A DNA stretch of 64,000 bases, taken from contig JBHGBE010000006.1 in assembly GCA_041946855.1 (NCBI GenBank), positions 16,999-80,998 of the forward strand, given 5' to 3'. Positions within the stretch are counted from its first letter, which is position 1. Each line of letters opens with the position of its first letter. Below are positions 14,271-55,346 of the stretch, piece after piece. The notes beneath the pieces were generated by a model. The model ran no database searches and was not told the DNA's origin. It worked only from the letters and a program-made list of their open reading frames with translations. Source of the DNA: Phycisphaerae bacterium. Its GTDB lineage: Bacteria > Planctomycetota > Phycisphaerae > SM23-33. A program made the position numbers and the translations under genes.

Positions 14271-14621
14271 GGCAAGTTCTCCTTACTCATGGCGAGTGAA
14301 CGGTCAAACTAATAAGACACGGCGTTCCGATGAACGTAGTGTTGCGCGCGGAAGAGCTGTTCCCAAAGACTGACTGAATTCCGATTCGGCGTTCGCGGAT
14401 GGGAGCACGGCAAGTGGAAGACGAGCGAGTCCGGCGGACAAAATCGCCGCAACGGGCGCCGACCATGCCGCCCCAGGCTCCAGCGATGCCCTTTGCCGGT
14501 CCTGTCATACCCGGTGCGCCTTGTGAACGGTCTTCGACCGGGGTCAATATGAGTCCGCCACGCTTACGTATTCTACGCGGCGGGCAATCGGCTTGTCATC
14601 AGAAAAATGCGTACGGTTCAA

Positions 14622-14708
14622 CTGGGGACTGTCCCGCCGTTTGGGACTGTCCCCAGTTGCCAGGCCACGGCAGCCGGGGACAGTCCCAAACGACGGGACA
14701 GTCCCGGG
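14622..14708. repeat. REP-like long hairpin element (GGGACTGTCCC family, copy 1)
   Basis: 31-bp arms GGGGACTGTCCCGCCGTTTGGGACTGTCCCC and GGGGACAGTCCCAAACGACGGGACAGTCCCGG are reverse complements with one mismatch, separated by a 21-nt loop. A near-identical element lies at 57251-57342. Confidence 0.6.
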
Positions 14709-14803
14709 CGATAAAGATACTTGCGGAACCGCGCCGATCATGGACAATCCGCCAAACGGGTCCCGCCGCACTCGGGGCTCGGCTCATCCGGGAGACATGT
14801 GTA

Positions 14804-15883
14804 ATGGCGTCGGACGATCAACTGGCAATCGACCTCCACGACGTCGCCAAGGTCTACCGCCGGAAGGTGCATGCCCTGCGCGGCATCAGCATGCAGGTAC
14901 ACACCGGCGAGATCTTCGGCCTGCTGGGTGCGAACGGGGCCGGCAAGACCACGCTTGTGAAGATCATGATGACCATCGTCCGCCCGACCCGTGCCCGCGG
15001 GACGCTGCTGGGAAGGCCCATCGGTTCCAAGCCCACGCTGGCGCAGGTCGGCTACCTGCCCGAGCACCACCGTTTCCCGCCGTACTTGAAGGCGAAGGAG
15101 GCGCTGGCATACTACGCGGCCCTGGCACGAGTGCCCCGAGCGCAGAGGAAGGTCCGCATCGCCGATCTCCTGGCCCGCGTGGGCATGGCCGAGTACGCCA
15201 ACGCGAGGATCGGCACGTTCTCCAAGGGCATGATGCAGCGGATCGGCCTGGCGCAGTCGATGCTGAACGATCCCCGGCTGATCCTGCTGGATGAGCCGAC
15301 CGACGGCGTCGACCCCATCGGCAGGCGCGACATCCGCAACTCACTGCTGGAGCTCAAGCTGCTGGGCAAGACCGTCTTCATCAACAGCCACCTGCTGAGC
15401 GAGGTGGAAATGATCTGCGACCGCGTGGCGATCCTCCACCAGGGCCTGGTGGTCCGGCAGGGGCGGATCGCGGACCTGACGCGGGACCGCTCGTACTACG
15501 AGATCGAGCTCCAGATTGACCCGGCGACGGCAAGGGAGGCCGTCACGGCCGCGCTGGGCTGCAACTTGGTCGATGCCGCCGGGCCTGCTGCCGTGCAGGG
15601 CGCGACGGCCGTAGGGGTCGGGCAACTTCCCGACGGGCGCCGGGTGGAGCTTGACGGTGCGTTCATCCGTCTGGCCGCCGGCGATGCAGCCGGAATACAA
15701 GGCATCATCGACGCTCTGCGTCGGGCCTCGCTGACCATAAAGGCGATCCGCCCCGTCCGGCAATCGCTGGAGGACTTCTTTATCCAGACCGTGGAGTCGC
15801 AGCCGACGGAAGCCCCCGGCCGTCCCAACAATGCGCCTCCGCCATACCTGCCGGCGTCGCCCGCGGCGGGAGGCCGGGCATGA
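14804..15883 (+). CDS. ABC transporter ATP-binding protein (ABC-2/exporter type)
   Basis: Walker A GANGAGKTT, signature FSKGMMQRIGLA, Walker B LILLDEPTDGVD. Start chosen at MASDDQ with GGGAGA upstream, because the track ORF extends through the REP element. Confidence 0.85.
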   Translation: MASDDQLAIDLHDVAKVYRRKVHALRGISMQVHTGEIFGLLGANGAGKTTLVKIMMTIVRPTRARGTLLGRPIGSKPTLAQVGYLPEHHRFPPYLKAKEALAYYAALARVPRAQRKVRIADLLARVGMAEYANARIGTFSKGMMQRIGLAQSMLNDPRLILLDEPTDGVDPIGRRDIRNSLLELKLLGKTVFINSHLLSEVEMICDRVAILHQGLVVRQGRIADLTRDRSYYEIELQIDPATAREAVTAALGCNLVDAAGPAAVQGATAVGVGQLPDGRRVELDGAFIRLAAGDAAGIQGIIDALRRASLTIKAIRPVRQSLEDFFIQTVESQPTEAPGRPNNAPPPYLPASPAAGGRA

Positions 15884-17085
15884 GCCAGACCCTCGCCATC
15901 TTCGTCGATCAATACCGCGCCCTGAAGGCGCGCAAGATGTTCTGGATCGTCCTGGCCATCTCCGGGCTGGTGGTCCTCGCGTTCGGCGCGATCGGCATAG
16001 ACGACAAGGGCATGACCATCCTGGGCTGGTCCATCGGGCTGGAGATGCTCAGCACGAGCCACATGACGCGGGCGTTCTTCTACAAGTCGCTGTTCAGCGG
16101 GCTGGGGATCGGGTTCTGGCTGAGCTGGCTGGCGGCGCTGCTGGCGCTGATCTCCACCGGCGGCATCTTCCCGGAGTTCATCTCGAGCGGGGCCATCGAC
16201 CTGACGCTCTCCAAGCCCATCAGCCGCATCCGCCTGTTCCTGACGCAGTACGTCGCGGGCCTGCTCTTCGTGACGCTCCAGGTGGGCATCTTCTGCTGTG
16301 CTAGCTTCCTGGTGCTGGGTCTGCGGGGGGGAGTGTGGGAACCGTGGCTGTTCCTGGCGGTGCCGCTGGTGGTGGCCTTCTTCAGCTTCCTGTTCTCGGT
16401 ATGCGTGCTCTTGGGCGTGTGGACGAGGTCTACCGTCGCCGCCATCCTGCTGACGCTGCTGTTCTGGTTCCTCCTGTACATCCTGAACACGGCCGACGCG
16501 GGCCTGTTGGTGTTCAAGGCGTCCATGGAGCAAGAGGCCGCCAGGTCCGACAAGCAGCTCCGGCGGGTCCAGGAGCAGATCCATCAGGCGGAAGGAGGGG
16601 AAGACGCGAGGACAGGAGGACAGGAAGAGCGGAGGACAGGATCATCGCATCCGGCTAGTCAGGCCTCCCTTCCTCCAGTCGTCCCGTCCTCCCGTCCAGC
16701 GTCGGCAGCCTCCGCCAGGCGCACGTCGGGCCCATCCGAGAGCATGGATTCCCTCAAGGCCAGGGAAGGCCGGCTCCAGCAGGAGCGGGATGAGCGTCTC
16801 GCTACCGCGGCCGCACTGGGCAAATGGAATCGCGTCATCTACTGGATCAAGACCTTCCTGCCCAAGACTTCCGAGACAGTCGCCCTGCTGGAGCGCGCGA
16901 TGGTAACGAAGGCCGACATGCCCGATCTTCCAAGAGCCAGTCCCGACGCGCCGGATCGCGGCGCCGAGGATGTGACCAAGGAGCTACAGGGCCGCTCGGT
17001 GGCCTGGGTGCTGGGGACGAGCCTGGCCTTCGAGGCCGTCATCCTCGCGCTGGCCTGTTTCATCTTCTGTAGACGCGACTACTGA
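15880..17085 (+). CDS. ABC-2 family transporter permease with long low-complexity cytoplasmic insert
   Basis: ATGA overlap with the preceding ATPase gene and multiple hydrophobic TM segments. The insert contains a GGAGGACA octamer tandem array at 16607-16642. Confidence 0.7.
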   Translation: MSQTLAIFVDQYRALKARKMFWIVLAISGLVVLAFGAIGIDDKGMTILGWSIGLEMLSTSHMTRAFFYKSLFSGLGIGFWLSWLAALLALISTGGIFPEFISSGAIDLTLSKPISRIRLFLTQYVAGLLFVTLQVGIFCCASFLVLGLRGGVWEPWLFLAVPLVVAFFSFLFSVCVLLGVWTRSTVAAILLTLLFWFLLYILNTADAGLLVFKASMEQEAARSDKQLRRVQEQIHQAEGGEDARTGGQEERRTGSSHPASQASLPPVVPSSRPASAASARRTSGPSESMDSLKAREGRLQQERDERLATAAALGKWNRVIYWIKTFLPKTSETVALLERAMVTKADMPDLPRASPDAPDRGAEDVTKELQGRSVAWVLGTSLAFEAVILALACFIFCRRDY

Positions 17086-17092
17086 CCCGGCC

Positions 17093-20000
17093 TCATTCGG
17101 AGGCGAACCCCCTGCGCATCGTGTTCTCCGCGATCGTGCGGGCGTCCATGAACTGAAGGAGGTAATCCGGCCCGCCGGCCTTCGCGCCCACGCCGGATAG
17201 CTTCAGCCCCCCGAATGGCTGACGGCCGACGATCGCGCCGACGATTGCGCGGTTGATGTAGAGGTTCCCGACCTGAAACTCCTGCCGGCATTTCTCAATC
17301 CGCGATGGGCTGCGGCTGAACACGCCTCCGGTCAGGGCGAACGGCGTCGAGTTGGCCAGCTCAACGGCCTGGTCAAAGTCCTCCACTCGCATGACGGCCA
17401 GGACCGGGCCGAAGATCTCCTCCTGCGCCAGTCGGCTTTGCGGGCTGATGCCGCCGACGACGGTGATCGGCGCGTAGAACCCATCGGCCGGCACGTAGGC
17501 TGGTGGAGTCTGGTACAGGATCGCCCCCTCCTGGCGGGCCAGCTCGACATATCGCATTACCTTGTCCCGTGCGGCTGCGGAGATGACCGGTCCAAGGAAG
17601 TTCGCCGGATTCTCGGGCGGCCCGACCCGCAGCGACCGCGCGGCCGGGATGAGCCGCTCGACGAATCGCTCATACACGTCGCCCAGCACAATGGCCCGCG
17701 AGCAGGCCGAGCACTTCTGCCCAGCGTAGCCGAACGCCGACTGGATGACGGCCGGCACCGCCTCGTCCAGGTCGGCGTCGTCGTCGATGATGATCGCGTT
17801 CTTGCCGCCCATCTCGGCGATGACTCGCTTGACGGCCGTCTGGCCTTCGCCGGTCCGCGCCGCCCGCTCGACGATCCGCAGGCCGACCTGCATTGAGCCC
17901 GTGAACGCGACCAGCGCGATTCGCGGATGGTCGATCAGGTAATCGCCGATGACCTCCCGCCTGCCGGGGATGAAGTTGAGCACGCCCGGCGGCAGCCCCG
18001 CCTCGCGTAAGATGTCGCACAGCAGCCGCCCGACCACGGGCGAGTGCTCCGACGGCTTGTACACTACGCAGTTGCCCGCCACGATGGCGGCCGCGCACAT
18101 GCCGCAACTGATCGCCAGCGGAAAGTTCCACGGCGCGATGACGGCCGCCACGCCCTTGGGCTGGTAGACGTACTCGTTCAGCTCGCCCGGCGAATCCCCA
18201 AGAAGCCAAGGGCCGCCCAGGCGGATCATCTGGCGGGCGTAGTACTCTAGGAAGTCGATAGCCTCGCACACATCCGCGCAGGCCTGGTTCCATTGCTTGC
18301 CCACCTCGAAGACCTGCCACGCGGCCAGTTCATATATGCGCTTTCGCGCGACTGCGGCCGCGCGGATGAGATGCTCGGCGCGATCGCGCGGCCGCACATC
18401 CCGCCAGGCGCGGAATGCCTCGTGCGCGGCACCGATGGCGGCATCGACCTCCTTGACGCCAGCCTGGCATATCCGGCCAACTATCTCGGCAGGACGGGCC
18501 GGGTTGACCGAGTCCCACAGGTCATCGGTGGCTACATCCTTTCCGCCGATGAAGAGCCTGTGCGTCCGGCCTAGCTGCTTACGCACCGCGGCCAGCGCGG
18601 CCGTGAATGCCTCGCGCACGACCGCGTGAGTGAAGTCCGCGGTCGGTTCGTTGCGGAAGGGCGGCAGATCATCGGTGTCCCGCGGCCGCTGTGCATCGGC
18701 CGGTTGTGGCGTGGGCCTCTGGCCCGCGCGTCTCGCGGCCGTCCCGGCCGCGATTTCCGCAGGCGAGACGCCTTCGGAACGCGCGGGCGAGACGCCCATG
18801 CCACTATTCTCCGATGCGTCCTTTGGCCGACTGACCTCGATCTCTTCCCGGCTCTCCTGCGCCTCCTCGACTGCCGTCCGCGGATCGGCCAATAGCCGCC
18901 GACGGAGGCCCTCATCCGCCTTCTGCGTGAATGTCTGCCGCAGGAACGATTCGTTGGACGTGTTCTCCAGCAGGCGGCGGATCAGGTACGCCATGCCCGG
19001 CAGCATCGCTCCGTGCGGACAATAGAGCCGCACCCTTCCGGCGAGCTTCAGGAGCGCCTTGCGGAACGGCTCGGCCATGCCGTGCAGCACCTGGAACTCG
19101 TACCGGTCCTCAGGCACGCCAAACTCGCGGGCCATCTCCATCACCGCGCTGGCCGTGCGGACGTTGTGCGTCCCGCAGGCCAAATGGCAGATGTCGCTGT
19201 GCCGCAGCAGCTTCTCGGCGTTGCGCTCGAACGATGCATCGGTCTGGGCCTTGACCGTGTAGACCGGCACGGGCCAGTTGTTCTGCCGCGCGATCACCAC
19301 CTCCTGGTCCCAGTACGCGCCCTTGACGAGGCGGATGGATATCCTCAGCCGCCGCTGCCGCGCCCAGGCGAGCAGGTCGTCGGTGTCGCGGTCCGTGTCC
19401 CGCAGATACGCCTGCACCGCCACGCCCAGGCGCGGGTAATCGCGAAACTCGCCGTCCTCGCGCAGCCGTCGATAGACCTCCAGCGTCAGGTCCTTGAGCC
19501 TGTACGCCTCCATGTCGATGCACATGAAGCCGCCGATGGCGACGACCTTGCGCCCGATCACCCGCAGCCGCTCCAGAATTCGCCCGGCCGATCCCTCGAA
19601 GTCCATCGCGCTGGCCTGTGAGTAGAGGGCCGACGGCTTGACGGAGACGTTGATCCGCGGCGCGTGGCCCCAGTCCAGGTCGCCCGCGCCGCCGCCCAGT
19701 GCCGGCCAGTCCTTCTGCGCCCCGGCCAGCTCATCCAGCAGCGCCAAGTACGTCGCGACGTACCGCTCGCTCTCATCCTCGCTGACCGTCGCCTCGCCCA
19801 GGACGTCCAGCGTGAACGCGAACCCATCCCGCCTCAGCGCCGTCAGGGCCGCTACCGTTTCGGCCGCATCCGCACCGACGATGAACTGCCGGGCCATGCC
19901 CTCGACCTGCCCGCGAATGGTCCTGCCGAGCACTCTCTCACCAAGTCCGCCCAGCAGGCCGGCCCCCGCCAGGCCGACTTTCAGGAACTCCGGCACGCCC

Positions 20001-20239
20001 TCCCGCCCCGCGAAGTACTCGTCCAGGTGGCGCGACAGCGACTGACTCGTCGCCAGCGCGGGCAGCACGTCGACGAACCGGAAGAGTTGAACCTTGAACG
20101 GCTCGTGCCTCATGCACCATTCGATGAGCTTGCCCGACCAGGTCGAGCGATTGAAGGCGGATGGGCGCTCGTCGCCGATGCAATCGAAGAACTCCATGCC
20201 TCGCGAGATGATCCGCTCATCAAGTCTGTTCCTGTCCAT
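17093..20239 (-). CDS. putA: Bifunctional proline dehydrogenase / L-glutamate gamma-semialdehyde (P5C) dehydrogenase
   Basis: 1048 aa. The N-terminal half is a proline dehydrogenase TIM barrel. The C-terminal aldehyde dehydrogenase has catalytic FGYAGQKCSACSR and EMGGKN motifs. An ~80-aa low-complexity linker joins the two halves. Confidence 0.85.
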   Translation of the reverse strand: MDRNRLDERIISRGMEFFDCIGDERPSAFNRSTWSGKLIEWCMRHEPFKVQLFRFVDVLPALATSQSLSRHLDEYFAGREGVPEFLKVGLAGAGLLGGLGERVLGRTIRGQVEGMARQFIVGADAAETVAALTALRRDGFAFTLDVLGEATVSEDESERYVATYLALLDELAGAQKDWPALGGGAGDLDWGHAPRINVSVKPSALYSQASAMDFEGSAGRILERLRVIGRKVVAIGGFMCIDMEAYRLKDLTLEVYRRLREDGEFRDYPRLGVAVQAYLRDTDRDTDDLLAWARQRRLRISIRLVKGAYWDQEVVIARQNNWPVPVYTVKAQTDASFERNAEKLLRHSDICHLACGTHNVRTASAVMEMAREFGVPEDRYEFQVLHGMAEPFRKALLKLAGRVRLYCPHGAMLPGMAYLIRRLLENTSNESFLRQTFTQKADEGLRRRLLADPRTAVEEAQESREEIEVSRPKDASENSGMGVSPARSEGVSPAEIAAGTAARRAGQRPTPQPADAQRPRDTDDLPPFRNEPTADFTHAVVREAFTAALAAVRKQLGRTHRLFIGGKDVATDDLWDSVNPARPAEIVGRICQAGVKEVDAAIGAAHEAFRAWRDVRPRDRAEHLIRAAAVARKRIYELAAWQVFEVGKQWNQACADVCEAIDFLEYYARQMIRLGGPWLLGDSPGELNEYVYQPKGVAAVIAPWNFPLAISCGMCAAAIVAGNCVVYKPSEHSPVVGRLLCDILREAGLPPGVLNFIPGRREVIGDYLIDHPRIALVAFTGSMQVGLRIVERAARTGEGQTAVKRVIAEMGGKNAIIIDDDADLDEAVPAVIQSAFGYAGQKCSACSRAIVLGDVYERFVERLIPAARSLRVGPPENPANFLGPVISAAARDKVMRYVELARQEGAILYQTPPAYVPADGFYAPITVVGGISPQSRLAQEEIFGPVLAVMRVEDFDQAVELANSTPFALTGGVFSRSPSRIEKCRQEFQVGNLYINRAIVGAIVGRQPFGGLKLSGVGAKAGGPDYLLQFMDARTIAENTMRRGFASE

Positions 20240-24551: not shown

Positions 24552-25373
24552 ATGGCGAGGACGAAACCGCGGATACTGGTGATCGGCGCCCACCCCGACG
24601 ACTGCGACCTCAGGGCCGGTGGGACGGCCGCCAAATGGGTCAAGGCCGGCTGCGTCGTGCGTTTCGTCGCCGCGACCAACGGGCAGAGCGGCCATCACGC
24701 CGATCCGCTGTCGACCGTCGTGCAGCGGAGGGCGGCCGAGGCGGCGGCGGCCGCGAAGGTCATCGGCGTCGAAAGCCAGGTGCTGCCCATCCCCTGCGGC
24801 CAGATGGAGCCCAACCTGTTCAATCGGTGGATGTTCATCCGCCTCATCCGCCAGTTCGCCCCGGACCTGATCCTGACGCACCGGCCCAACGACTACCACC
24901 CCGACCACCGCTACACGTCTCAGCTCGTGCAGGACTCGTCGTACCTGGTCCGCGTGCCGTATAACGCGCCGGAAGTGCCGGCCCTGCGGTACAGCCCCGT
25001 CATCGCGTATACGAGCGACAACTTCCGCAAGCCCTGCCCGTTCGAGGCCGACGTGGTCATCGACATCGACGACACCATCCGCGCCAAGATGGCGATGTTC
25101 CACCGCCACACCAGCCAGGCCTACGAGTGGGTACCGTGGATCGAGGGGTATCTCGACGAGGTGCCCAAGACGGAAAAGGCCCGGAAACAGTGGCTCTTCG
25201 ACAAGTGGGCGCCGCAGTCGGCGCACGTCGCCGAGCGGTTCCGCGACAAGCTCGTGGCCCGCTACGGCCCCAAGCGCGGCAAGGCCGTCAAGTACGCCGA
25301 GGCGTTCGAGGGCTGCGAGTACGGCGCGAGACTCGACGCCAAGGCAATCGATAGGTTCTTCGGGGGGTTGTGA
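24552..25373 (+). CDS. PIG-L/LmbE family deacetylase
   Basis: ILVIGAHPDDCDLRAGGTAAKW and ...HPDHRYTS motifs; AAGGAA Shine-Dalgarno upstream. Confidence 0.8.
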   Translation: MARTKPRILVIGAHPDDCDLRAGGTAAKWVKAGCVVRFVAATNGQSGHHADPLSTVVQRRAAEAAAAAKVIGVESQVLPIPCGQMEPNLFNRWMFIRLIRQFAPDLILTHRPNDYHPDHRYTSQLVQDSSYLVRVPYNAPEVPALRYSPVIAYTSDNFRKPCPFEADVVIDIDDTIRAKMAMFHRHTSQAYEWVPWIEGYLDEVPKTEKARKQWLFDKWAPQSAHVAERFRDKLVARYGPKRGKAVKYAEAFEGCEYGARLDAKAIDRFFGGL

Positions 25374-25387
25374 GTCACGGTGTCCTG

Positions 25388-25401
25388 AACGGATATCCGT
25401 T
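25388..25401. terminator. 14-bp perfect palindrome AACGGATATCCGTT between convergent stops (possible bidirectional terminator)
   Basis: Seen in sequence 9 nt after the feoA stop and 15 nt after the PIG-L stop. Confidence 0.3.
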
Positions 25402-25409
25402 GTGCGATT

Positions 25410-25715
25410 TCACTTGTGCTGCCAGTGGACGACGATCTTGGCGGCCAACTCCCTGTCAACGGTGAACTGGCTGTAGCCCACCTGGAAGACATAGGATGGG
25501 AACCGCCGAATCAGGCGGATATGTACGCCGGGGAGGATGCCGATGGCCATGAGCTTCTGTATCTCTCGGTGGTCGCTGGTGCTGAGGTAGGCGATGCTGC
25601 CCTCCGCGCCCAAGGGGGCGTCGGAGAGCGGACGGGCCTCCTCTATTGCGTCCTGGCCGGCTCGGCGGCAGCACTCGCCGGGCGGAACCGGCTTGTCAAC
25701 ACGTGGATTTGTCAT
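25410..25715 (-). CDS. feoA: FeoA family ferrous iron transport protein
   Basis: SH3-like FeoA domain ...LSTSDHREIQKLMAIGILPGVHIRLIRRFPSYVFQVGYSQFTVDRELAAKIVV. Confidence 0.65.
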   Translation of the reverse strand: MTNPRVDKPVPPGECCRRAGQDAIEEARPLSDAPLGAEGSIAYLSTSDHREIQKLMAIGILPGVHIRLIRRFPSYVFQVGYSQFTVDRELAAKIVVHWQHK

Positions 25716-25887
25716 GCCGACGCTGTCTCCATCTCCGGATCAGGCGGACAAGGCGCGTCTCACGCGGCGACTCATAGCCGCATCGCGGGCACTTGGCCTT
25801 GCGGCACCCGCCGAACACCGCGCATGCCGAGCACGCCCTGACGGCCGCCTCTTCGTCGAACTCATTTCCGCAGAAAGGGCATCTCAT
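25696..25887 (-). CDS. Small zinc-ribbon protein (63 aa), translationally coupled to feoB
   Basis: MRCPFCGNEF...CSACAVFGGCRKAKCPRCGYES: two CxxC pairs followed by an Arg-rich tail. Its ATG overlaps the feoB TGA (ATGA), and its 3' end overlaps the feoA start by 20 nt. Confidence 0.45.
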   Translation of the reverse strand: MRCPFCGNEFDEEAAVRACSACAVFGGCRKAKCPRCGYESPRETRLVRLIRRWRQRRHDKSTC

Positions 25888-27992
25888 AGGTGTATTCCCA
25901 GATTGCCCAGGGCGTCGAGCGCCAGGTTCAGCACGAACCCGACGCCGAATGCGAACACCGCGATGAACGCGGAGACCAGCAGCGTCATCCTCAGGCCGCG
26001 CTCCTTCCTCATCACCAGGAACTGCGCGATGCACGGTAGGAACAGCGTCAACGTGACGGCCGCCACTACGAGCTGGTTGCCCATCAGGAGGTCCTTCGTG
26101 TGCAGGTCGTACAGGCCGGCGATGCCGTAGTCGCGCCTGAAGAAGCCGAACAGGAACGCCTGTGCGGCCTGGCCGGGCAGGCCCAGCGCCTTGACTATCG
26201 GCGTCAGGCCGTTGATGACGATCTGGAACACGCCGCCCTCCGGCAGCAGGCCCCACCAGTCCAGCCGGCAGACCCAGATGATCGCGCTGGCGATGATGAA
26301 CAGCGGCAGCACCTCCTTGAAATACCAGACCATCCTCGTGTAGGTCTTGACCAGCACGTTTCCCACGCGCGGCAGGCGGAGAGGCGGAAGCTCCATGTAG
26401 AATGCCGGGCGCTCGCCAGGCATGAACTTCGCCGCCAAGAGCCCTGCCGCCAGGAACACGGCGGCTATCACGCCGGCCCAGACCGCCATCGCGGCCGGGT
26501 GGCCCTCCAGCAAGCCCAGTATCACGCCGATCTGCGCCGAGCACGGGACCGCCAGCGCCAGCAGGAACGTCGCGATGACCCGCTCGCGGCGTGTCTCGAG
26601 CGTCCGCGTGACCATCGTGGCCATGGTGTCGCAACCGAAGCCCAGCACCATCGGGATGACCGCACGGCCGTTGAGGCCGATCCGCTTGAACACGCGGTCA
26701 ACGAGCATCGCCAGCCGCGGCAGGTAGCCGCTGTCCTCCAGTATCGAGAACGCCAGGAAGAACGTGCCGACGATTGGGAAGACAATGGCGATGGCGTAGC
26801 GCAGGCCCAGCGTGATGATGCCGTAGTCGCCGCCGAAGAGGTCCCGCAGGATCGGCCAGGGGATGGTCGCGGCGGCCGTGCGGTCGATCCAGCCGCTGAC
26901 GTAGTCCTTGAACAGGCCCTCCAGTCCGTTGACCATCACGCCCGCGCCCAGGCCGCCGACGAACTTGTACAGCCCCAGGTAGAGCACCGCAAACAGTAGC
27001 GGCAGGCCCGTCCACGGGCTCATGCACAGCTCGCTCAGACGGTCGCGGAGCGTGTGCGAGCGGCGTGGGGGCAGCACGGCCGTGTCCTTCAGTATGCGGT
27101 CCACGCGGCCCTTGACGGCCATCGCCGTGTGATAGTGCGGCGTGTGGCGGAGGGCCATCGTCACGTCCCAGACGAGGCCCGACACGGCCGCCGCGTGGTC
27201 GTCGCCCGCCTCCTCGCGGAGCAACTGGCGCATCTCGTGATCGCCGTGGATGAGCAGGATCGCCCGCGTCCGCCGGCCGATCCCGTCGCCGTCGCCGACG
27301 TGCGGCTGGATCGCGGCGATGGCCTTTTCGATTACCGGGCCGTAATCGACCTTGAAGGAATTGCGGAATGCGGAATGCGGATTGCGGATTCCAGGAGGCG
27401 CAGACTGACTCCCAGGCAATCCGCATTCCGCATTCCGCATTCCGCAATCAGACCTGATTCTTCCGGCAAGTTCCGCCAATCCCTTGCCCGACGTGGCCAC
27501 GGTCGGCACGACTGGTATTCCGAGGGCCTTTTCCAGCGCGGCGCAGTCGATGCGGATGCCGGCCTCCTGGGCCTCGTCCCACATGTTCAGGGCCAGCACC
27601 ACTGGCAGGCCGGCCTCGACCAACTGAAGCGTCAAGCCCAGCATCCGCTCGATGCTCTTTGCGTCGATGACGTGTACGACGGCCGCGGGCGTCCGCCGCA
27701 GCAGGATCGACCGCGCCACTCGCTCCTCATCCGTGATCGGCAGCAGCGAGTACATGCCGGGCGTGTCGATGACCTCGGCGTCCAGCAGCCTGGAGCGGCC
27801 GCGTGATACCTCGACGGTCGTGCCGGGGTAATTGGATACCGTGACGTACCGGCCGGTAAGCCGGTTGAATAGCGCGCTCTTGCCGACGTTCGGGTTGCCG
27901 ACGATGAAGATGGCGCCCGCGCCAGCCTCGCTTGGAGGCCGGTGGGAATCGCCCGCGCCTTCCTTTTCAACAACCGCACCGATACGGCCCAT
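25884..27992 (-). CDS. feoB: Ferrous iron transporter FeoB
   Basis: G-domain motifs GNPNVGKSALFN, DTPG, NMWD, then a polytopic membrane domain. Start at MGRIGAVV with GGAG upstream. Confidence 0.85.
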   Translation of the reverse strand: MGRIGAVVEKEGAGDSHRPPSEAGAGAIFIVGNPNVGKSALFNRLTGRYVTVSNYPGTTVEVSRGRSRLLDAEVIDTPGMYSLLPITDEERVARSILLRRTPAAVVHVIDAKSIERMLGLTLQLVEAGLPVVLALNMWDEAQEAGIRIDCAALEKALGIPVVPTVATSGKGLAELAGRIRSDCGMRNAECGLPGSQSAPPGIRNPHSAFRNSFKVDYGPVIEKAIAAIQPHVGDGDGIGRRTRAILLIHGDHEMRQLLREEAGDDHAAAVSGLVWDVTMALRHTPHYHTAMAVKGRVDRILKDTAVLPPRRSHTLRDRLSELCMSPWTGLPLLFAVLYLGLYKFVGGLGAGVMVNGLEGLFKDYVSGWIDRTAAATIPWPILRDLFGGDYGIITLGLRYAIAIVFPIVGTFFLAFSILEDSGYLPRLAMLVDRVFKRIGLNGRAVIPMVLGFGCDTMATMVTRTLETRRERVIATFLLALAVPCSAQIGVILGLLEGHPAAMAVWAGVIAAVFLAAGLLAAKFMPGERPAFYMELPPLRLPRVGNVLVKTYTRMVWYFKEVLPLFIIASAIIWVCRLDWWGLLPEGGVFQIVINGLTPIVKALGLPGQAAQAFLFGFFRRDYGIAGLYDLHTKDLLMGNQLVVAAVTLTLFLPCIAQFLVMRKERGLRMTLLVSAFIAVFAFGVGFVLNLALDALGNLGIHL
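27356..27449. repeat. In-frame palindromic heptamer element inside feoB (GCGGAAT/GCGGATT arrays as 33-bp inverted arms)
   Basis: Left arm AATTGCGGAATGCGGAATGCGGATTGCGGATTCC is separated by a 22-nt spacer from right arm GGCAATCCGCATTCCGCATTCCGCATTCCGCAATC. It falls between the FeoB G-domain and helical domain. The repeat tracts encode DCGMRNAECG and PGIRNPHSAFRNS within the linker ...RSDCGMRNAECGLPGSQSAPPGIRNPHSAFRNS.... Confidence 0.6.
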
Positions 27993-28042
27993 CTTCGCAC
28001 TAACTCCGCAAGGCCCGCTCGTTTCCGCCGCGAGCCCTGAAC

Positions 28043-28579
28043 TCATTGGGTGGATTTGACGTCGGCGGGCCTGCGCATCTCGCGAACAGCGCCGGCGACG
28101 CACTTGCGGCACTCCCGCGGCCCTCGCGCCAGCCCGGACGTGCAATGCCGCCTGAATGCCTCCGTCCAGCTTTCGCCCGCGCGGGGGCAGTCGGCGACGA
28201 ACTCGCCGAAGAGCCTCAGCCGCTCCAGCACGGCCTCATCGACCGCGTGCTCCATCCGGCATGCGTTGGCCTCCGCCTCCTGGGCGTCGAGGCCCAGCAC
28301 GTCGCACAGGAAGCGCCGGATGTCGTAGTGGCGGCGGCTGACCTGCTCGGCCAGCTCCCCGCCGCGGTCGGTCAGCGTGACGAACTGATAGGGGTCGTAG
28401 TTGACCAGGCCGCGGGACGCCAGCGTCTTGAGCGCGGCCGTTACGGCCGGCATGCCAACCTTCAACTCGCGGGCGATGTCGCGGACCCTGGCGACGCGGT
28501 TCCGCCGCACCAGGAACAGGATCGCCTCGAGGTAGTCCTCCATTGAGGCCGTCAGACGCTTGGTCGCTGTTGCGTTCAT
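28043..28579 (-). CDS. DtxR/MntR family metal-dependent transcriptional regulator with Cys-rich C-terminus
   Basis: N-terminal wHTH MEDYLEAILFLVRRNRVARVRDIARELKVGMPAVTAALKTLASRGLV and a metal-binding region. It sits directly upstream of feoB on the same strand. Confidence 0.8.
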   Translation of the reverse strand: MNATATKRLTASMEDYLEAILFLVRRNRVARVRDIARELKVGMPAVTAALKTLASRGLVNYDPYQFVTLTDRGGELAEQVSRRHYDIRRFLCDVLGLDAQEAEANACRMEHAVDEAVLERLRLFGEFVADCPRAGESWTEAFRRHCTSGLARGPRECRKCVAGAVREMRRPADVKSTQ

Positions 28580-28661
28580 GGTCGATCTCGTAACTGTTTG
28601 TCCATGCTACCGTAACACAGGTGAGTTCAAGATCATGAACATTATGGCAGATATGGAATGA

Positions 28662-28671
28662 TATTGCAATA
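28662..28671. promoter_or_regulatory. 10-bp perfect palindrome TATTGCAATA in the AT-rich dtxR-feo upstream region (candidate operator)
   Basis: Located ~85 nt upstream of the dtxR ATG in the only strongly AT-rich patch of this intergenic region. Confidence 0.3.
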
Positions 28672-28698
28672 GAAAAACATCTTGCCGCCCATCATTCA

Positions 28699-29565
28699 CT
28701 ATTGCGGGAAGACCTTGATGGGCCTGAGAGACTTGCCATCCGCCGATGGCCTGGCGATAGCGATGAGTCGGCCGCCGGAATCGACAAGAGCAGCCTCGGA
28801 AGCCGAGGATTGTCCTTTGGGCATGGGGATAGGCTTGCCCAGCATGATAGCCGTGATTTCATCGGGGGAAAACGGGAACTTCGGCATGTCCGGCAGCGCC
28901 ATCAGCGGCGGAATCAGATCTCGCGCGATATCCAGCTTCGCAAGTTCGACGGCCGTGTCAAGGGTGAACAGCCCGATTCGCGTGCGAGTCAATTCGCTAC
29001 AGTATCCGCCGGCGCCCGTGATCCGGCCGATGTCGCGGGCGATGGCGCGGATGTAAGTCCCGCCGCCACACTGGACCTCGATCTCCAGACGCGGGTACTC
29101 GTACTTGAGCAGGTCGATCCGGCGAACCTCCACCGTCCGCGCCGCGGGCTGGACCGGCTTGCCCGCGCGGGCCAGCTTGTAGGCTCGCCGGCCGTCGATG
29201 TGAATGGCGCTGTGCGCAGGCGGGACTTGTTCGATGCTGCCGGTCAGGCGCAACAGTGCCGCGCGTATCTCATCCTCGGCCGGCGGCCGCGCGCCGGACG
29301 TTGGCGCGATCGGACCCTCCGGGTCGTCCGTCGCGCTGGTTGCCCCGAGCACGACGACCGCTCGGTAGCACTTGTGCTGGGCCTGGACGTAGTCCGCCAG
29401 CCGGCACGCCTGGCCCATGCACACCACGAGCACGCCGGTCGCGAACGGATCAAGCGTCCCCGCGTGGCCGACCTTGACGCCGCGCCCCGCGATTCGCCGC
29501 ACCGTCGCGACGACATCGTGGCTGGTCATGCCCGCTGGCTTGTTGACGTTCAAAAAGCCAAACAC
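28699..29565 (-). CDS. truB: tRNA pseudouridine(55) synthase
   Basis: LNVNKPAGMTSHDVV, HAGTLDPFATGVL (catalytic Asp) and a PUA-like C-terminus. Apparent GTG start. Confidence 0.85.
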   Translation of the reverse strand: MFGFLNVNKPAGMTSHDVVATVRRIAGRGVKVGHAGTLDPFATGVLVVCMGQACRLADYVQAQHKCYRAVVVLGATSATDDPEGPIAPTSGARPPAEDEIRAALLRLTGSIEQVPPAHSAIHIDGRRAYKLARAGKPVQPAARTVEVRRIDLLKYEYPRLEIEVQCGGGTYIRAIARDIGRITGAGGYCSELTRTRIGLFTLDTAVELAKLDIARDLIPPLMALPDMPKFPFSPDEITAIMLGKPIPMPKGQSSASEAALVDSGGRLIAIARPSADGKSLRPIKVFPQ

Positions 29566-30293: not shown

Positions 30294-30592
30294 AGTCTTA
30301 CCTTCCTTTCTTGCTATATGGCCTTTGACACGCCCTTCCCTTCGCTCTACTGTATTCTATGCACACGCCGTGCCACCTATTCGGGCTCGCCGGGCCATTC
30401 GCAAGTTTCGTGAGTTCAGAGAGTTGCGGCGGCGACTTTGCGGGCCGTCCTGCGGCGTGAACTGCCATTTCGACACTGCGGCCGGAAGGGGCTCAACCCC
30501 GAGCCCGCGCCAAGCCGATAACACAGTCTGCCGCCATGCCGCAGGTTGCCACCCGGCGGCGGTGTCTCGTGAACCGACAGCAGGAGCGTCGA

Positions 30593-31051
30593 ATGACCAG
30601 GTTCCGTGGTGACGTTGAGTTGCTGCCGCCCCGCGCGCGGTACTTCACGCCGCAGCAGGCGGGCCGCGCGCTGGTGCTCGTGCGGAGGATCGTCCAGGAC
30701 ATCGTCGGCGGCTACGGCCGGCTGGTGGATCTCCAGGAGACGCTCGAGGCGCTCCAGACCCGCCAGTCGCGGCAGGAGTGCGAGGCCGTCCGGCGCGAGC
30801 TGATCGCCACGATGGAGACGCTCCAGTCATGCCTGGAGGAGCTCGAAGAGGTCGGTGTGGAGCTTGTCGATTGGGCGCTGGGGATCGTCGAGTTCCCATG
30901 CCTCTGGAGCGGGCGCGAGATCCGCCTGACCTGGCAGCACGGCCAGGGCGGCGTCAGCCATTGGCGCGAGATCGGCGAAAGCCCCGCCTCCCGCCAGCCC
31001 ATCAGCACGCTCCTCATGGAGCAGATGGCGGGGGTCGGCGCGAGGAGATGA
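30593..31051 (+). CDS. DUF2203 family protein
   Basis: MTRFRGDVELLPPRARYFT... with the characteristic ...ELVDWALGIVEFPCLW... motif; AGGAG 7 nt upstream. Confidence 0.6.
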   Translation: MTRFRGDVELLPPRARYFTPQQAGRALVLVRRIVQDIVGGYGRLVDLQETLEALQTRQSRQECEAVRRELIATMETLQSCLEELEEVGVELVDWALGIVEFPCLWSGREIRLTWQHGQGGVSHWREIGESPASRQPISTLLMEQMAGVGARR

Positions 31052-31064
31052 GCACACGGAAACG

Positions 31065-31122
31065 GCAGAAGCGCCTGACGGCAAGCCAATCACGATGCTG
31101 GCTTGCCGTTAGGCGCTTCTGC
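31065..31122. terminator. 24-bp-stem hairpin between the convergent DUF2203 and flotillin genes (candidate bidirectional terminator)
   Basis: GCAGAAGCGCCTGACGGCAAGCCA-(10 nt)-TGGCTTGCCGTTAGGCGCTTCTGC, one mismatch, starting 14 nt after the stop at 31051. Confidence 0.5.
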
Positions 31123-31142
31123 CGTCTCCTCAGTTGGTAATT

Positions 31143-31186
31143 CGTCAATCGCAAATCGTCAATCGCAAATCGTCAATCGCCAATCT
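31143..31186. repeat. Tandem 14-nt (2x7) array TCGTCAATCGCAAA x3 abutting the flotillin stop codon
   Basis: Seen directly in sequence; reverse complement GATTGCGATTGACGA, GCGATTG heptamer family. Confidence 0.55.
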
Positions 31187-32815
31187 CTACACTTTCGGCT
31201 CCGCCGGCTTTGGCGGCGTGGGCCTGCCGGCGGATTGGGCGGCGGGAGGGGCGGGGGACCTGGGGCCGGCAGGCGTGCCGCCGCCGGACGGACCGGCGGG
31301 CGTGGCTGCGCCGGGCATATCGGCGGCTTCCGGGCCCTTGGCCACGTGGCCCAGGTAGCTTGGCAGGTCCAGTCCCACCTGCTTGGCCAGCTCGTGCAGC
31401 GGCGGCAGCACGCCCATGAGCTTCTTGCCCAGGCCGCTGAGGCCCGCCTGGCCGTCGGCGCCGCTGCCCGCGTCCCACACGACGATCTTGTCGATAGGCA
31501 GGTCCTGTATCGCCTGCGCCTGGATGTGCGCCACCTCGGGGAGCTTTTCGATGATGAGCAGGGCGGGGGCCAAGTGCGGGTCGCCGGCCGCGCGGACCAG
31601 GGCCATGTAGCCCGTCGCCTTGCCTTCGAGTATGGCCTGCTGGCCCTTGCCCTCGGCCGTCGCCTTGGCGAGTATCGCGGCCGCCTGGCCCTCGGCCACG
31701 CGGATGGCCTGCTCCTTCTGCGCGTCGGCCTCGATGACGATCCGCTTCCGTTGCGCATCGGCCGGCACGACGACCTCGGCGTTCAGCCGCGACGTTTCGC
31801 GGAGCGCGCGGGCGTCCTCGGCCTTCTTTTGCGCGGTCTCCTGCGCGACGCGAATGGCGCCGTCGGCCTCCTTCGCGGCCGACTCGCCCTTGTTGCGGGA
31901 CTCTTCCTCGGCCACCTTCTGGTCGGCGCGATAGCGGGCCTTGTTGGCGTTGGCGTTCGTCTCGGCCTGGACCGCCTCGGCGTCCAGCTTGGCGACCTGC
32001 TGTCGCTTGTTACGGGCGGCCGTCGCCTCGCCGATCTCGGCATCGGCCGTCGCCGCGGCGACCGCGACGCGCTGGTCCCTCTGCCGCTCGGCCACGCCTA
32101 TCTGGCCGCGCCGCTCCTGCTCGGACACGTCGATGTTGGCCTGCTGAACCGCCTCCGCCGCCGCCTTGCGGCCGATGGCCTTGATGTACCCCGACTCGTC
32201 CTCGATGTCCTTGATGTTGACGTTGATGACGGCCAGGCCGATCTTCTCGAGCTCCGTCGTGACGGCCTCGTTCACCTTTGCCATGAACGACTGCCGGTCG
32301 CGGTTGATGTCCTCGATCCGCATCGTCGCGATGACCGCGCGCATCTGCCCGATGATGATGTCCTGCGCCAGCGTCTGTATCTGCTGTGTTGAAAGCCCCA
32401 GGAGGCGGTGGGCGGCGTTCTGCATGATGCCTTCCTGGTTGGAGATGGCGGCCGTCACCGTCGTCGGCACGGTGACGCGGATGTTCTCCTGCGACAGGGC
32501 GTTGGTCAGCTCGATGGGCACGACGAACGGCTCCAGGTCCAGGTAGTCGTAGGCCTGAATGAGCGGCCACACGAACGTGGCGCCGCCGTGGATGCACCTG
32601 GCCGCCGTCCCTCCCCCCGTCTTGCCGTACTTGACGAGGATCTTGTTCGACGGGCATCGCTTGTACCGCTTGGCGATGGTGACGAAGATGACAATGACTA
32701 TAAGGGCGAGGATGATCGTCAGGATGATCCCGGCAGGAAGCCCGGAACCTGGCTCCTCCGGCGTCGGCTTCCTGATCTGCCCCAGCATCATCGCGAAACC
32801 AAGCAGTCCGTTCAT
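31187..32815 (-). CDS. Flotillin / SPFH (band 7) domain protein
   Basis: N-terminal TM segment, SPFH domain, long Ala/Glu-rich coiled coil and a Pro-rich C-terminus; classic partner of the upstream NfeD gene. Confidence 0.85.
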   Translation of the reverse strand: MNGLLGFAMMLGQIRKPTPEEPGSGLPAGIILTIILALIVIVIFVTIAKRYKRCPSNKILVKYGKTGGGTAARCIHGGATFVWPLIQAYDYLDLEPFVVPIELTNALSQENIRVTVPTTVTAAISNQEGIMQNAAHRLLGLSTQQIQTLAQDIIIGQMRAVIATMRIEDINRDRQSFMAKVNEAVTTELEKIGLAVINVNIKDIEDESGYIKAIGRKAAAEAVQQANIDVSEQERRGQIGVAERQRDQRVAVAAATADAEIGEATAARNKRQQVAKLDAEAVQAETNANANKARYRADQKVAEEESRNKGESAAKEADGAIRVAQETAQKKAEDARALRETSRLNAEVVVPADAQRKRIVIEADAQKEQAIRVAEGQAAAILAKATAEGKGQQAILEGKATGYMALVRAAGDPHLAPALLIIEKLPEVAHIQAQAIQDLPIDKIVVWDAGSGADGQAGLSGLGKKLMGVLPPLHELAKQVGLDLPSYLGHVAKGPEAADMPGAATPAGPSGGGTPAGPRSPAPPAAQSAGRPTPPKPAEPKV

Positions 32816-53276: not shown

Positions 53277-54959
53277 CTACATTTTCCGGCTGTGTTCCAG
53301 GACGTGCTTCAGATCGGCACAGACTTTGTTCACCTGGCGGTCCTTCAGTTCCAGGATGTCGCGCAGCGCCTCGCCGATCGCGGGGATGTATTTCTCGATG
53401 TAGGACCGTTTCTTCATCTCATCGTGGATGCGGACGGTCTTACGGATGTGAGTGCCGAGCTTCCGGCCGCACTCCTGGAGCGCCAGCCGGATTTCCTTCA
53501 GGATTTCCGGGTAGGACGCGATGGCCTCCTTCGACTCGCTGGTGAACGGCACCCAGACGCTGGCCATGTGGACGACCACGGTCAGCGGTCCCTCGGGCAG
53601 AGCGCCGCGAGCCTGCGTGATGCCGTACTGCCGCCAGTTGAGCGTGACCACCGACTTGTAGATGGAGCACGCCGACTGCTGATATAGCAGCGGCACGCGG
53701 TTGGCGAAGCGGATGAGCTTGGCGAGTTCGGAAGTCTCCTCTTCGTCATCGGCGGCGACGGCCGGCGCGGCGGCGGGGGCCTCGGCGCCGTTGCCGTTGG
53801 CCTCCCGGTCCTGATCTTCCGGCGAGTTGCCGGCCGTCTTCGCGCCGGCGGACTTCGCGCCGGCCGTTGCGGTCTGGGAATCTTCCGGCTGCTCCGGTTT
53901 GCCGTATGCGATGGCGGCCTCGATGATGAACGGGTTTCCGCGGTAGACGGCCGGGCTGCGGCTGGTGGCCACGTAGAACTCGGCCTCGACCACCTGCTTC
54001 AGTCCGCCGATGAGCTGCTCCTCGCCGATGGGCACGACGCAGTCGGTTGATGGCGCCATGATCCGCGTCTGCTGTATCGCGTTGTAGATCGCGCGGGCCT
54101 CCTCGCCGCCCAGGCGTGATGGCCGCTGGTCGGGGGAGAGATTCGCCTTCTGGCAGACCTCCAGCGCCACGCGCGGCGAGACGCGGGAGAACTCGCTCGA
54201 CAGGAAGTGGCGGAGCGTGCGGCTGCGGCTGTCGGTGAGCATCTTGATGAGCACGCCCAGCTCGATTCCGTGCGGGTGCGGGCGGATGGCCTTTGGCGGC
54301 GGCGGCAGCGATTTGTGGCTGGCCTCGTACCTGTCCGCCCGGCTGTCGGGCGCGTGGTAGACCAGCGTGACGTGCGGGTTGGCGATGGCCGTCTGCTGGA
54401 GGTAGTCATCCACGCTCTGCCGGCCGCGCTGATACTTGGCCTCAAGCTCGATCTCGACGCGCGTGCCGTGGGGCACGTCCCAATCGACCTGGTCTTCCTT
54501 GATGACGTCGGGCGTGTTGCGGCTGGTGTCGATCTGGAGCTCGCAGTAGAGGGCCTTGCCTCGCGGGTTGTGTCGCGAGGTGATGCGGACCGGCCGGCCG
54601 GTGGTCAGCAGGCCGTACATGCCCGCGGCCGAGATGCCGATGCCCTGCTGGCCGCGGCTCATCCGCAGGCGGTGGAACTTCGAGCCGTAGAGCAAGCGGC
54701 CGAAGATGTTGGGGATTTCCTTGCGGACGATGCCGGGGCCGTTGTCCTGGACGATGACCTTGAAGTGCGTCTCGTCGAGCTGCTCGATCCAGATCTCGAC
54801 GGCCGGCAGGATGCCGGCCTCCTCGCAGGCGTCGAGCGAGTTGTCGACGGCCTCCTTCACGGTGGTCAGGAGCGCCTTGCGGGGATTGTCGAAGCCGAGC
54901 AGGTGGCGGTTCTTGGCGAAGAACTCGCTGACGGAGATGTTCCGCTGTGCCTTGGCCAT
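53277..54959 (-). CDS. top6B: DNA topoisomerase VI subunit B (alternative upstream ATG at 55206-55208 would give a 644-aa ORF)
   Basis: GHKL/Bergerat ATPase motifs (EAVDNSLDA, DNGPGI, GQQGIGISAAGMYG), H2TH and transducer domains. Start chosen at MAKAQRNISVSEFF to match the archaeal Top6B N-terminus (…SPAEFF…). The upstream 250 nt are packed with heptamer repeats. Confidence 0.75.
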   Translation of the reverse strand: MAKAQRNISVSEFFAKNRHLLGFDNPRKALLTTVKEAVDNSLDACEEAGILPAVEIWIEQLDETHFKVIVQDNGPGIVRKEIPNIFGRLLYGSKFHRLRMSRGQQGIGISAAGMYGLLTTGRPVRITSRHNPRGKALYCELQIDTSRNTPDVIKEDQVDWDVPHGTRVEIELEAKYQRGRQSVDDYLQQTAIANPHVTLVYHAPDSRADRYEASHKSLPPPPKAIRPHPHGIELGVLIKMLTDSRSRTLRHFLSSEFSRVSPRVALEVCQKANLSPDQRPSRLGGEEARAIYNAIQQTRIMAPSTDCVVPIGEEQLIGGLKQVVEAEFYVATSRSPAVYRGNPFIIEAAIAYGKPEQPEDSQTATAGAKSAGAKTAGNSPEDQDREANGNGAEAPAAAPAVAADDEEETSELAKLIRFANRVPLLYQQSACSIYKSVVTLNWRQYGITQARGALPEGPLTVVVHMASVWVPFTSESKEAIASYPEILKEIRLALQECGRKLGTHIRKTVRIHDEMKKRSYIEKYIPAIGEALRDILELKDRQVNKVCADLKHVLEHSRKM

Positions 54960-54997
54960 CTGCTCGGCCGTGGCGAAGGGGCGCTTGGCCGGCAGGT

Positions 54998-55122
54998 CGG
55001 ATTGTGGATGGCGGATTGCGGATTGCGGATTGATCGCCTGGACGGCCGGCGGAGCTTTCGCGGCGGGCTTGCCCGGCTTGGCCGGAGGCGATTTCGGATT
55101 TCGGATTTCGGATTTCGGATTG
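54998..55122. repeat. Two tandem CGGATT(G/T) heptamer arrays (x5 and x4.5) in the top6B / GT2 divergent region
   Basis: TCGGATTGTGGATGGCGGATTGCGGATTGCGGATTGA (54998-55034) and CGATTTCGGATTTCGGATTTCGGATTTCGGATTG (55089-55122). The unit is identical to the feoB-internal element. Confidence 0.6.
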
Positions 55123-55346
55123 CCCGCCGCAAGCGCTTTGGCGGCCCTCTTGTCGGCCCTTGGTCCCTCGTCGCTAGTCCCTAGTCGCTTACTTGGCTTC
55201 TTGGCCATCCGTGGCGTCCCTGATGTTGAAGGTCTGCACATCAACTTCCAGCGTAATCTATGCGGTTTGCACCCGGCCGTCAAGCGATGGCAATTGCGGT
55301 CCGCCTGGAGGTTTTCACGCCCGCCGGTGCGCGGTATCATGTGCTA

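Follow-up and report, generated by a model that had tools for sequence, protein, structure and literature searches.

An in-frame heptamer hairpin in feoB of a Phycisphaerae bacterium, probably a tolerated copy of a repeat usually found after stop codons

The ferrous iron transporter gene feoB of a Phycisphaerae bacterium (Planctomycetota; GenBank assembly GCA_041946855.1) contains, in frame, a long inverted repeat whose arms are built of tandem heptamers of the type GCGGAWT (W, A or T). The gene lies in a 64,000-nucleotide (nt) stretch of contig JBHGBE010000006.1 (positions 16,999 to 80,998 of the forward strand), hereafter the window, which is the part of the genome covered by this analysis. 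The repeat is best explained as a tolerated intragenic copy of a hairpin that is usually found just after stop codons, a reading to which we assign a probability of roughly 0.6. By analogy, the hairpin appears to behave like the Rickettsia palindromic elements (RPEs), to which, going by their published description, it is unrelated in sequence. A regulatory role of the hairpin in feoB is unsupported.

The inverted repeat comprises two arms of 31 nt that are complementary at 30 of 31 positions (97%) and separated by 27 nt. The sole mismatch between the arms is of the T.T/A.A type, and an alternative register yields 24 nt with 100% complementarity. Each arm holds approximately 4.4 tandem heptamers, the unit being ATTGCGG in the left arm and GCATTCC in the right one. 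The first-pass annotation had described a perfect palindrome of 94 bp, with arms of about 33 bp and a 22-nt spacer, inserted in frame in feoB. Its recognition of GCGGAAT/GCGGATT heptamers and of the preserved frame is borne out, whereas the palindrome is interrupted by the mismatch and by bulges, the arm and spacer lengths differ from those given, and 94 is not divisible by three; the added peptide amounts to approximately 24–32 amino acids (aa), depending on the reference homolog chosen. Since the spacer has its own small stem, the mRNA-sense (minus) strand forms a stem with interruptions, about 40 bp long and capped by a loop of roughly 11 nt. The predicted folding energy as RNA is −70.1 kcal/mol (z = −7.1), a stability equalled by none of 200 shuffled sequences and in agreement with the very stable mRNA hairpin anticipated earlier; as DNA, the values are −46.1 kcal/mol and z = −9.5. 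Inspection by eye, with no formal scan, revealed no direct repeat abutting the arms, and no T-run follows them. An Rfam scan of positions 25300–28700 returned only sub-threshold chance matches, the best being mir-3432 with 33.7 bits against a gathering score of 80. The 14-mer GCGGAWTGCGGAWT occurs eight times in the window against 0.14 expected. No second copy of the spacer was found in the window or among the fetched loci.

The hairpin is in frame with the minus-strand feoB open reading frame (ORF) and is translated as ...RSDCGMRNAECGLPGSQSAPPGIRNPHSAFRNS..., the hairpin-coded residues being 182–211 of the 702-aa FeoB. The NCBI record of the identical 702-aa protein names it ferrous iron transport protein B from a Phycisphaerae metagenome-assembled genome (MAG), where it is encoded on a contig of 98.6 kb. 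FeoB_N, FeoB_Cyto, two Gate domains and FeoB_C are all present in the protein, which is intact. In the 753-aa ORF, Pfam assigns FeoB_N to residues 79–228 and FeoB_Cyto to residues 268–355, and the repeat occupies the gap in between, which upholds its earlier placement between the G domain and the helical domain. Alignments with solved NFeoB G domains stop at residue ~179 (702-aa numbering), directly before the insert. An AlphaFold2 model of the whole FeoB, computed with 64 homologs, reached a predicted local distance difference test score (pLDDT) of 86.2 and a predicted template modelling score of 0.79. Residues 181–210 have a pLDDT of 67/50/53 and are mainly coil, flanked by helices 172–182 and 219–231. 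The gene looks functional and the insert appears to be a disordered surface loop. The gene order feoA, feoB and DtxR-type repressor gene is also found at homologous loci.

An alignment of 120 FeoB homologs, the window protein and 119 others, places the insert in an evolutionary context. The linker measures about 7 residues in most of them, and the window insert is present in none of the 119 others. Lineage-specific insertions of 8 aa or more number 14 when the N-terminal region and one 8-aa segment common to 12 homologs are set aside, and eight of them fall in this linker, which joins the G domain to the helical domain. The FeoB linker is an insertion hotspot, the place where homologs most often have lineage-specific extra sequence. 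The restriction to one homolog, the low-confidence coil and the hotspot agree with the initial suggestion of a lineage-specific insert tolerated in a linker. The closest homolog (P0002, locus L001; 67% identity by BLASTP and 71% over well-aligned columns) carries in its linker, in frame, an inverted repeat that belongs to the same heptamer family, with arms degraded to 26 complementary positions out of 36. In this decayed hairpin, changes compatible with G.U pairing number five in the sense and three in the antisense strand, which is uninformative with regard to RNA-strand asymmetry. The FeoB of P0009 (locus L002, 59% identical) has five small tandem GC-rich hairpins in the same linker, and the insert of P0005 is ENGDWLLFRRLKKVPVP. 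The DNA of the long linkers of P0003, P0006 and P0011 forms no significant hairpin (z = −1.6, +0.8 and +0.8, respectively), and that of P0003 holds possible heptamer remnants only. P0001 and P0002 fall into one clade of a neighbour-joining tree together with P0007, whose linker is minimal; thus, the tree does not establish a common ancestry of both inserts.

A further insertion made of repeats was noted in the homolog P0010 (L132, 1690–1818), where 43 aa within the G domain are encoded by a direct repeat, CTTGCGGTGCAGGCG in two copies, together with small hairpins.

The heptamer hairpin of the window belongs to a family distributed across bacteria. The family was defined by at least two tandem GCGGAWT units followed, within 10–60 nt, by at least two tandem AWTCCGC units, a definition that includes the window copy. 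A scan with the pattern GCGGAWTGCGGAWT-N(20-50)-AWTCCGCAWTCCGC over one representative genome per species gave at least 120 matches, and the architecture (GCGGAWT)n-loop-(AWTCCGC)n is present in at least 120 other assemblies from at least eight labelled bacterial phyla. Labels among the matches listed include Acidobacteriota (notably Pyrinomonadaceae), Gemmatimonadota, Planctomycetota, Verrucomicrobiota, Chloroflexota, Bacteroidota, Binatia and Latescibacterota; the matches listed also include the isolate Fibrella rubiginis (Bacteroidota) and several records labelled as complete chromosomes. The carriers are soil and water bacteria. The arms share a fixed outer phase, (G/A)AWT followed by GCGG, and some flanks prolong the palindrome; the outer ends of the window hairpin, AATT followed by GCGG on the left and CCGC followed by AATC on the right, conform to it. 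The copy number of the arms varies, both arms having equal numbers in 72 of 131 family hairpins, and the window hairpin has four units per arm. The W base covaries between the arms, with 88 complementary against 12 non-complementary pairs (Fisher p = 2e-13). In the window hairpin, W is complementary in three of the four heptamer pairs, the fourth being the single mismatch.

The arrangement of the family is polar, and the mirror order, (AWTCCGC)n-loop-(GCGGAWT)n, is rare. Viral contigs yielded no mirror form against six forward ones, even when the pattern was relaxed; the fetched loci (860 kb), chosen for the forward form, yielded none against 125; and the whole JGI metagenome collection contains 17 such loci only. 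The loops are distinct in nearly all of the 125 family hairpins. On one Acidobacteria contig (L076), two hairpins at 3802–3857 and 5356–5425 share the same loop, 1.5 kb apart and in opposite orientation, and the loop of a third hairpin, L106 of the same MAG, is partly related. The loop-sharing pair is the clearest support found for the duplication of whole hairpin units. The viral contigs L125 and L126 have identical loops and are probably from the same virus. Shared loops were also considered as the core of a miniature inverted-repeat transposable element (MITE), and this idea was rejected because the shared k-mers are almost all heptamer remnants. The 127 family copies display no conserved insertion motif beyond the fixed phase (G/A)AWT; no target-site duplication was noticed by eye, with no formal scan, in the 60 flanks listed; and the family profile lacks a U-tract after the stem. 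An all-against-all BLAST of 724 neighbouring ORFs disclosed no linked enzyme gene near 120 hairpins; the families that it gave were generic ones, ABC ATPases and response regulators among them.

Family copies are concentrated at the 3' ends of genes. Genes in the fetched loci were called with a crude caller based on the GC content of third codon positions (GC3), which on the window gives 49 genes and 90% coverage. Of 100 classified hairpins, 54 lie in tandem gaps, 20 in convergent gaps, 6 in divergent gaps and 20 within ORFs. Divergent gaps are depleted, with 6 of 80 intergenic copies against 13–20 expected. Past the upstream stop codon, the median distance is 10.5 nt for tandem and 13 nt for convergent gaps, and that from the hairpin to the next start codon is 28.5 nt. 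Approximately 11–14% of the copies are intragenic, like the window copy, which sits in mid-feoB and not near a stop codon. Under a strict test, which demands an open frame of at least 150 nt on each side and coding-type GC3 on both flanks, 12 of 107 hairpins are in frame inside genes. Roughly one copy in eight is in frame within a conserved gene. Pfam confirmed as hosts UvrA, PurL, LpxB, an IspD/IspF linker, RecG, an AcrB-family pump, a Ser/Thr kinase domain (Pkinase), an amidohydrolase and YfhO.

The IspD/IspF copy (L092, 1128–1185) lies exactly in the linker of the bifunctional IspD-IspF protein, and it could be the relic of an intergenic hairpin that was read through after gene fusion. Such a fusion relic is plausible for the linkers of IspD/IspF and of PutA (see below) but is a misfit for FeoB, UvrA, PurL and the kinase loop.

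These observations suggest how the hairpin may have come to reside in feoB. It would have arrived by DNA-level copying of whole hairpins or by heptamer slippage combined with fold-back templating. GCGGAWT arrays contain a stop codon in none of the six frames, as read directly from the sequence. The hairpin would persist in feoB because the arrays are stop-free, its length keeps the frame and the approximately 30 added residues form a harmless, disordered surface loop at the most permissive site of FeoB. The element would have no dedicated function in feoB, and ribosomes would have to unwind the mRNA stem of about 40 bp. A translation pause, cleavage by RNase III or termination when translation is uncoupled may occur as side effects that are not selected.

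Several points weigh against this reading. The nearest FeoB, at only 67–71% identity, is too distant to supply an empty site that would fix the boundaries, any target duplication or the age of the insert. The 64 kb covered hold a single hairpin and one additional array of this heptamer. The covariation of the arms is compatible with a functional structure and with templated copying alike. The gene neighbourhoods of the 120 hairpins provide no enzyme gene to explain the spread, and the gene calls behind the positional statistics in the fetched loci come from the crude GC3-based caller. A further point concerns two pairs of orthologs. In UvrA of two Gemmatimonadota MAGs (L010, 1696–1752; L019, 4432–4511), whose proteins are 76.6% identical, the hairpin occupies identical nucleotide junctions, with the AAT variant of the heptamer in one and the ATT variant in the other. 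PurL of two Gemmataceae MAGs (L034, 3791–3871; L039, 3027–3097; one labelled Urbifossiella sp.; 79% identical) likewise shows the same junctions. In both pairs, four-fold synonymous sites are only about 50% identical, and yet the arms are still near-perfect heptamer arrays. Something maintains the arms in these genes, either concerted evolution or selection. The pairs may reflect repeated insertion at the site, or homogenisation of the arms by slippage, hairpin-templated repair or selection. A purely neutral account fails above all to explain this persistence, which leaves room for an intragenic function.

A broader interpretation joins several of these elements. It views the family as an undescribed, cross-phylum class of polar, heptamer-armed DNA/RNA hairpins with a role at gene 3' ends (termination or mRNA protection), whose perfect, complementary arms would be preserved through concerted evolution and which would have spread as whole units within genomes and possibly between phyla, settling repeatedly as enduring coding palindromes in linkers and loops of essential proteins. 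One such case would be the copy in feoB, which could be a translation-dependent intragenic terminator. Taken as a whole, this combination is a tentative possibility that we consider doubtful.

Rather unlikely is an origin in place, by which polymerase slippage would have grown a short heptamer array and a fold-back template switch would have supplied the complementary arm. Such an origin is consistent with the solo and direct heptamer arrays common in the window, with the unique loops and the often unequal arm copy numbers of the family, and with the abundance of heptanucleotide repeats in many bacteria, for which slippage has been proposed (PMC4692102, PMC4679880). However, an identical heptamer with a fixed outer phase and polarity across phyla is hard to obtain from independent local events, and one contig bears two copies with the same loop. 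Moreover, the apical part of the feoB hairpin is also extra relative to the homologs, which indicates that the whole hairpin is new sequence.

The hairpin could also be a selected RNA structure in the feoB mRNA that tunes FeoB output as an interdomain pause, a site of RNase III cleavage or decay, or a conditional intragenic terminator. The stability of the mRNA-sense stem, the recurrence of hairpin-forming inserts in the same linker at L001 and L002, the covariation of the arms across the family, the retention at identical junctions in UvrA and PurL, and the usual location of the family at sites of terminators or mRNA stabilisers all argue in this direction. Against them, the same hairpin resides in unrelated housekeeping genes of other phyla and is thus not tied to iron transport, and most copies lie after stop codons. 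The 119 other FeoB homologs manage without the insert, and the copy at L001 has decayed to 26/36 pairing with no RNA-strand signature in its G.U-compatible changes. No U-tract follows the stem, and no Rfam family matches it. Furthermore, the stem starts at the end of the last G-domain helix, so that a pause would probably occur while this helix is still in the ribosome tunnel. A selected RNA structure is improbable on this evidence, and the idea of a pause or regulatory device of an iron transporter, raised when the hairpin was first noticed, is not supported.

Phase variation of feoB, in which gain or loss of one 7-nt unit would shift the frame and toggle the transporter off or on, is very unlikely. 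A tandem unit inside an ORF whose length is not a multiple of three and the varying copy number among family members would suit it, but each arm has only about four copies, arrays of this kind also occur in genes such as uvrA, purL, lpxB and ispDF, whose inactivation would come at a cost, and the FeoB protein cluster has a single member on one contig. An assembly artefact, that is, a chimeric or fold-back join of the kind that amplification or assembly errors can produce in a MAG, is hardly credible, as the frame is preserved with genuine FeoB on both flanks and the same architecture recurs in at least 120 independent assemblies, including records labelled as whole chromosomes and an isolate; the first-pass annotation had named misassembly as a possible refutation.

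The tolerated-copy reading finds its closest parallel in RPEs, which are described as elements of about 150 bp with a conserved sequence and peptide in each family, found in Rickettsia only (Ogata et al. 2000, 2002; PMC10969869). As far as this description extends, both kinds of element are palindromic repeats lying in frame in many unrelated housekeeping genes, with a peptide that the fold tolerates and with intergenic copies as well; the GCGGAWT family shares with RPEs the in-frame insertion at tolerant sites of unrelated conserved genes. In contrast to RPEs as so described, the GCGGAWT hairpin has a variable number of heptamers and a unique loop, spans many phyla and mostly hugs stop codons. 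Judged by the same description, its heptamer stem, its unique loop and its occurrence in Planctomycetota and other phyla place it outside the RPE sequence families.

In many bacteria, the commonest long simple-sequence repeats have units of seven nucleotides, with slippage proposed as their cause (PMC4692102, PMC4679880). Heptanucleotide repeats have been reported from Xanthomonas, Nostoc, Beggiatoaceae and Geobacter (PMC4692102, PMC4679880, PMC2700814). Examples are the GGGAATC repeats of Xanthomonas, for which inverted pairs were noted, the TAACTGA repeats of Beggiatoaceae and the arrays of the STRR (short tandemly repeated repetitive) type in cyanobacteria (PMC4692102, PMC4679880). Like these, the GCGGAWT family consists of tandem 7-nt units that are chiefly intergenic, phylogenetically scattered and without a known mechanism, and the 4.4 copies per window arm exceed the three tandem copies set as the minimum for long simple-sequence repeats. 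The published heptamers are different ones, form mainly direct arrays and often lie upstream of start codons.

Other classes of small repeats fit less well. Repetitive extragenic palindromes (REPs) and the REPINs that they compose are extragenic inverted hairpin pairs near gene 3' ends, with a spacer less conserved than the arms. GCGGAWT hairpins resemble them in location and in the less conserved spacer, but they lack the GTAG/CGTC head, their arms beginning with (G/A)AWTGCGG, and they are built of tandem repeats and not of single imperfect palindromes. No recurrent neighbour resembling a REP-associated tyrosine transposase (RAYT) was found in the 120 loci; RAYTs are single-copy genes that need not be nearby. 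MITEs are short, non-coding elements with terminal inverted sequences and strong secondary structure, some of which have occasional in-frame intragenic copies. The family shares with them the short length, the terminal inverted sequences and the strong secondary structure, and the feoB hairpin was initially suggested, as one of two options, to be one. The family differs in that no target-site duplication was seen by eye, no core is conserved among the copies, the arm length changes in 7-nt steps and no transposase-like gene recurs near the 120 hairpins; an assignment to MITEs in the strict sense is accordingly not sustained. Compared with intrinsic terminators, the family likewise offers a stable hairpin a few nt past the stop codon, which by its symmetry would serve both of two convergent genes, but it has no U-tract, and its stems are unusually long and, for GC-rich genomes, fairly AT-rich.

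In open-access full text, the arm sequences were found in no paper, an earlier description elsewhere being possible, and no paper was found there that connects repeats of this unit length with Planctomycetes. Nor did that literature yield a description of heptamer hairpins with the polar inverted layout of the GCGGAWT family, of their placement close to stop codons or of their in-frame occurrence in conserved genes. Coding palindromes and heptamer repeats are known kinds of sequence. For feoB itself the consequence is small, as the encoded transporter is intact and the additional loop most likely does no harm. The finding at the level of the gene is ordinary, and the family that it exposed is unexpected in its breadth, polarity and stop-codon association. 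For genome biology, one specific heptamer hairpin in at least eight labelled phyla favours the first few nt past stop codons. As regards protein evolution, one in roughly eight copies is translated within conserved enzymes. The family offers a concrete case for how identical short repeats arise or spread across phyla, and cultured carriers, such as Fibrella rubiginis, exist. With regard to annotation, the stop-free arrays lengthen ORFs and may explain protein runs like IRNPQSA or CGLRIAD.

Table 1. Components of the feoB hairpin, genes of the locus and in-frame heptamer arrays elsewhere in the window
Feature	Position in the window	Strand	Description
Left arm	27360..27390		ATT(GCGGAAT)2(GCGGATT)2; 3' arm in the minus-strand mRNA; codes ...GIRNPHSAFRN
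Spacer	27391..27417		27 nt; own short stem CCAGGAG / CTCCCAGG; codes about LPGSQSAPP
Right arm	27418..27448		AATCCGC(ATTCCGC)3AAT; 5' arm in the mRNA; codes DCGMRNAECGL
feoB coding sequence	25884..27992	minus	702 aa from the start in the NCBI record; open frame to 28145 (753-aa ORF)
feoA	25410..25715	minus	downstream of feoB; FeoA domain
DtxR/IdeR-type iron-dependent repressor gene	28043..28579	minus	upstream of feoB
CGGATTG x5 array	54998..55032		same heptamer family, not inverted; in frame in the N-terminal tail of the Top6B-like gene; NPQSAIRHPQS
GATTTCG x4.6 array	55090..55121		related heptamer; in frame in the same Top6B-like N-terminal tail; NPKSEIRNPKS

Heptamer arrays are common in the window, both solo and direct, and some adjoin the stop codons of neighbouring genes. 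Two arrays lie in frame in a topoisomerase VI B-like (Top6B-like) protein encoded by the minus-strand ORF 53277..55340 (Table 1). Repeats lying in frame within linkers and tails are characteristic of this genome generally.

Repeats with other units were also observed in the window. The PutA gene (ORF 17093..20239, minus strand) contains an imperfect palindrome at 18693–18817 made of GGGCGAGACGCCC-type units, with arms of 60 nt that are 73% complementary. It is in frame and lies in the linker between Pro_dh (aa 131–435) and Aldedh (aa 575–1036). Units of this type also compose all five of the small hairpins found in the L002 FeoB linker. In an ABC-2 family permease (ORF 15880..17085, plus strand), inverted 8-mer arrays of GAGGACAG and CCTCCCGT at 16608–16641 and 16664–16697 are in frame and correspond to aa 243–273. 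A hairpin of GGGACTGTCCC units at 14625–14705, with 37-nt arms that are 92% complementary, is situated upstream of the ABC ATPase domain of ORF 14399..15883 and is probably 5' untranslated and not coding. A further hairpin at 31058–31129, with 31-nt arms that are 94% complementary, lies a few nt past the end of ORF 30536..31051, and an array with a 14-nt period, TCGTCAATCGCAAA in three copies at 31142–31185, abuts the stop codon of the convergent gene 31187..32815.

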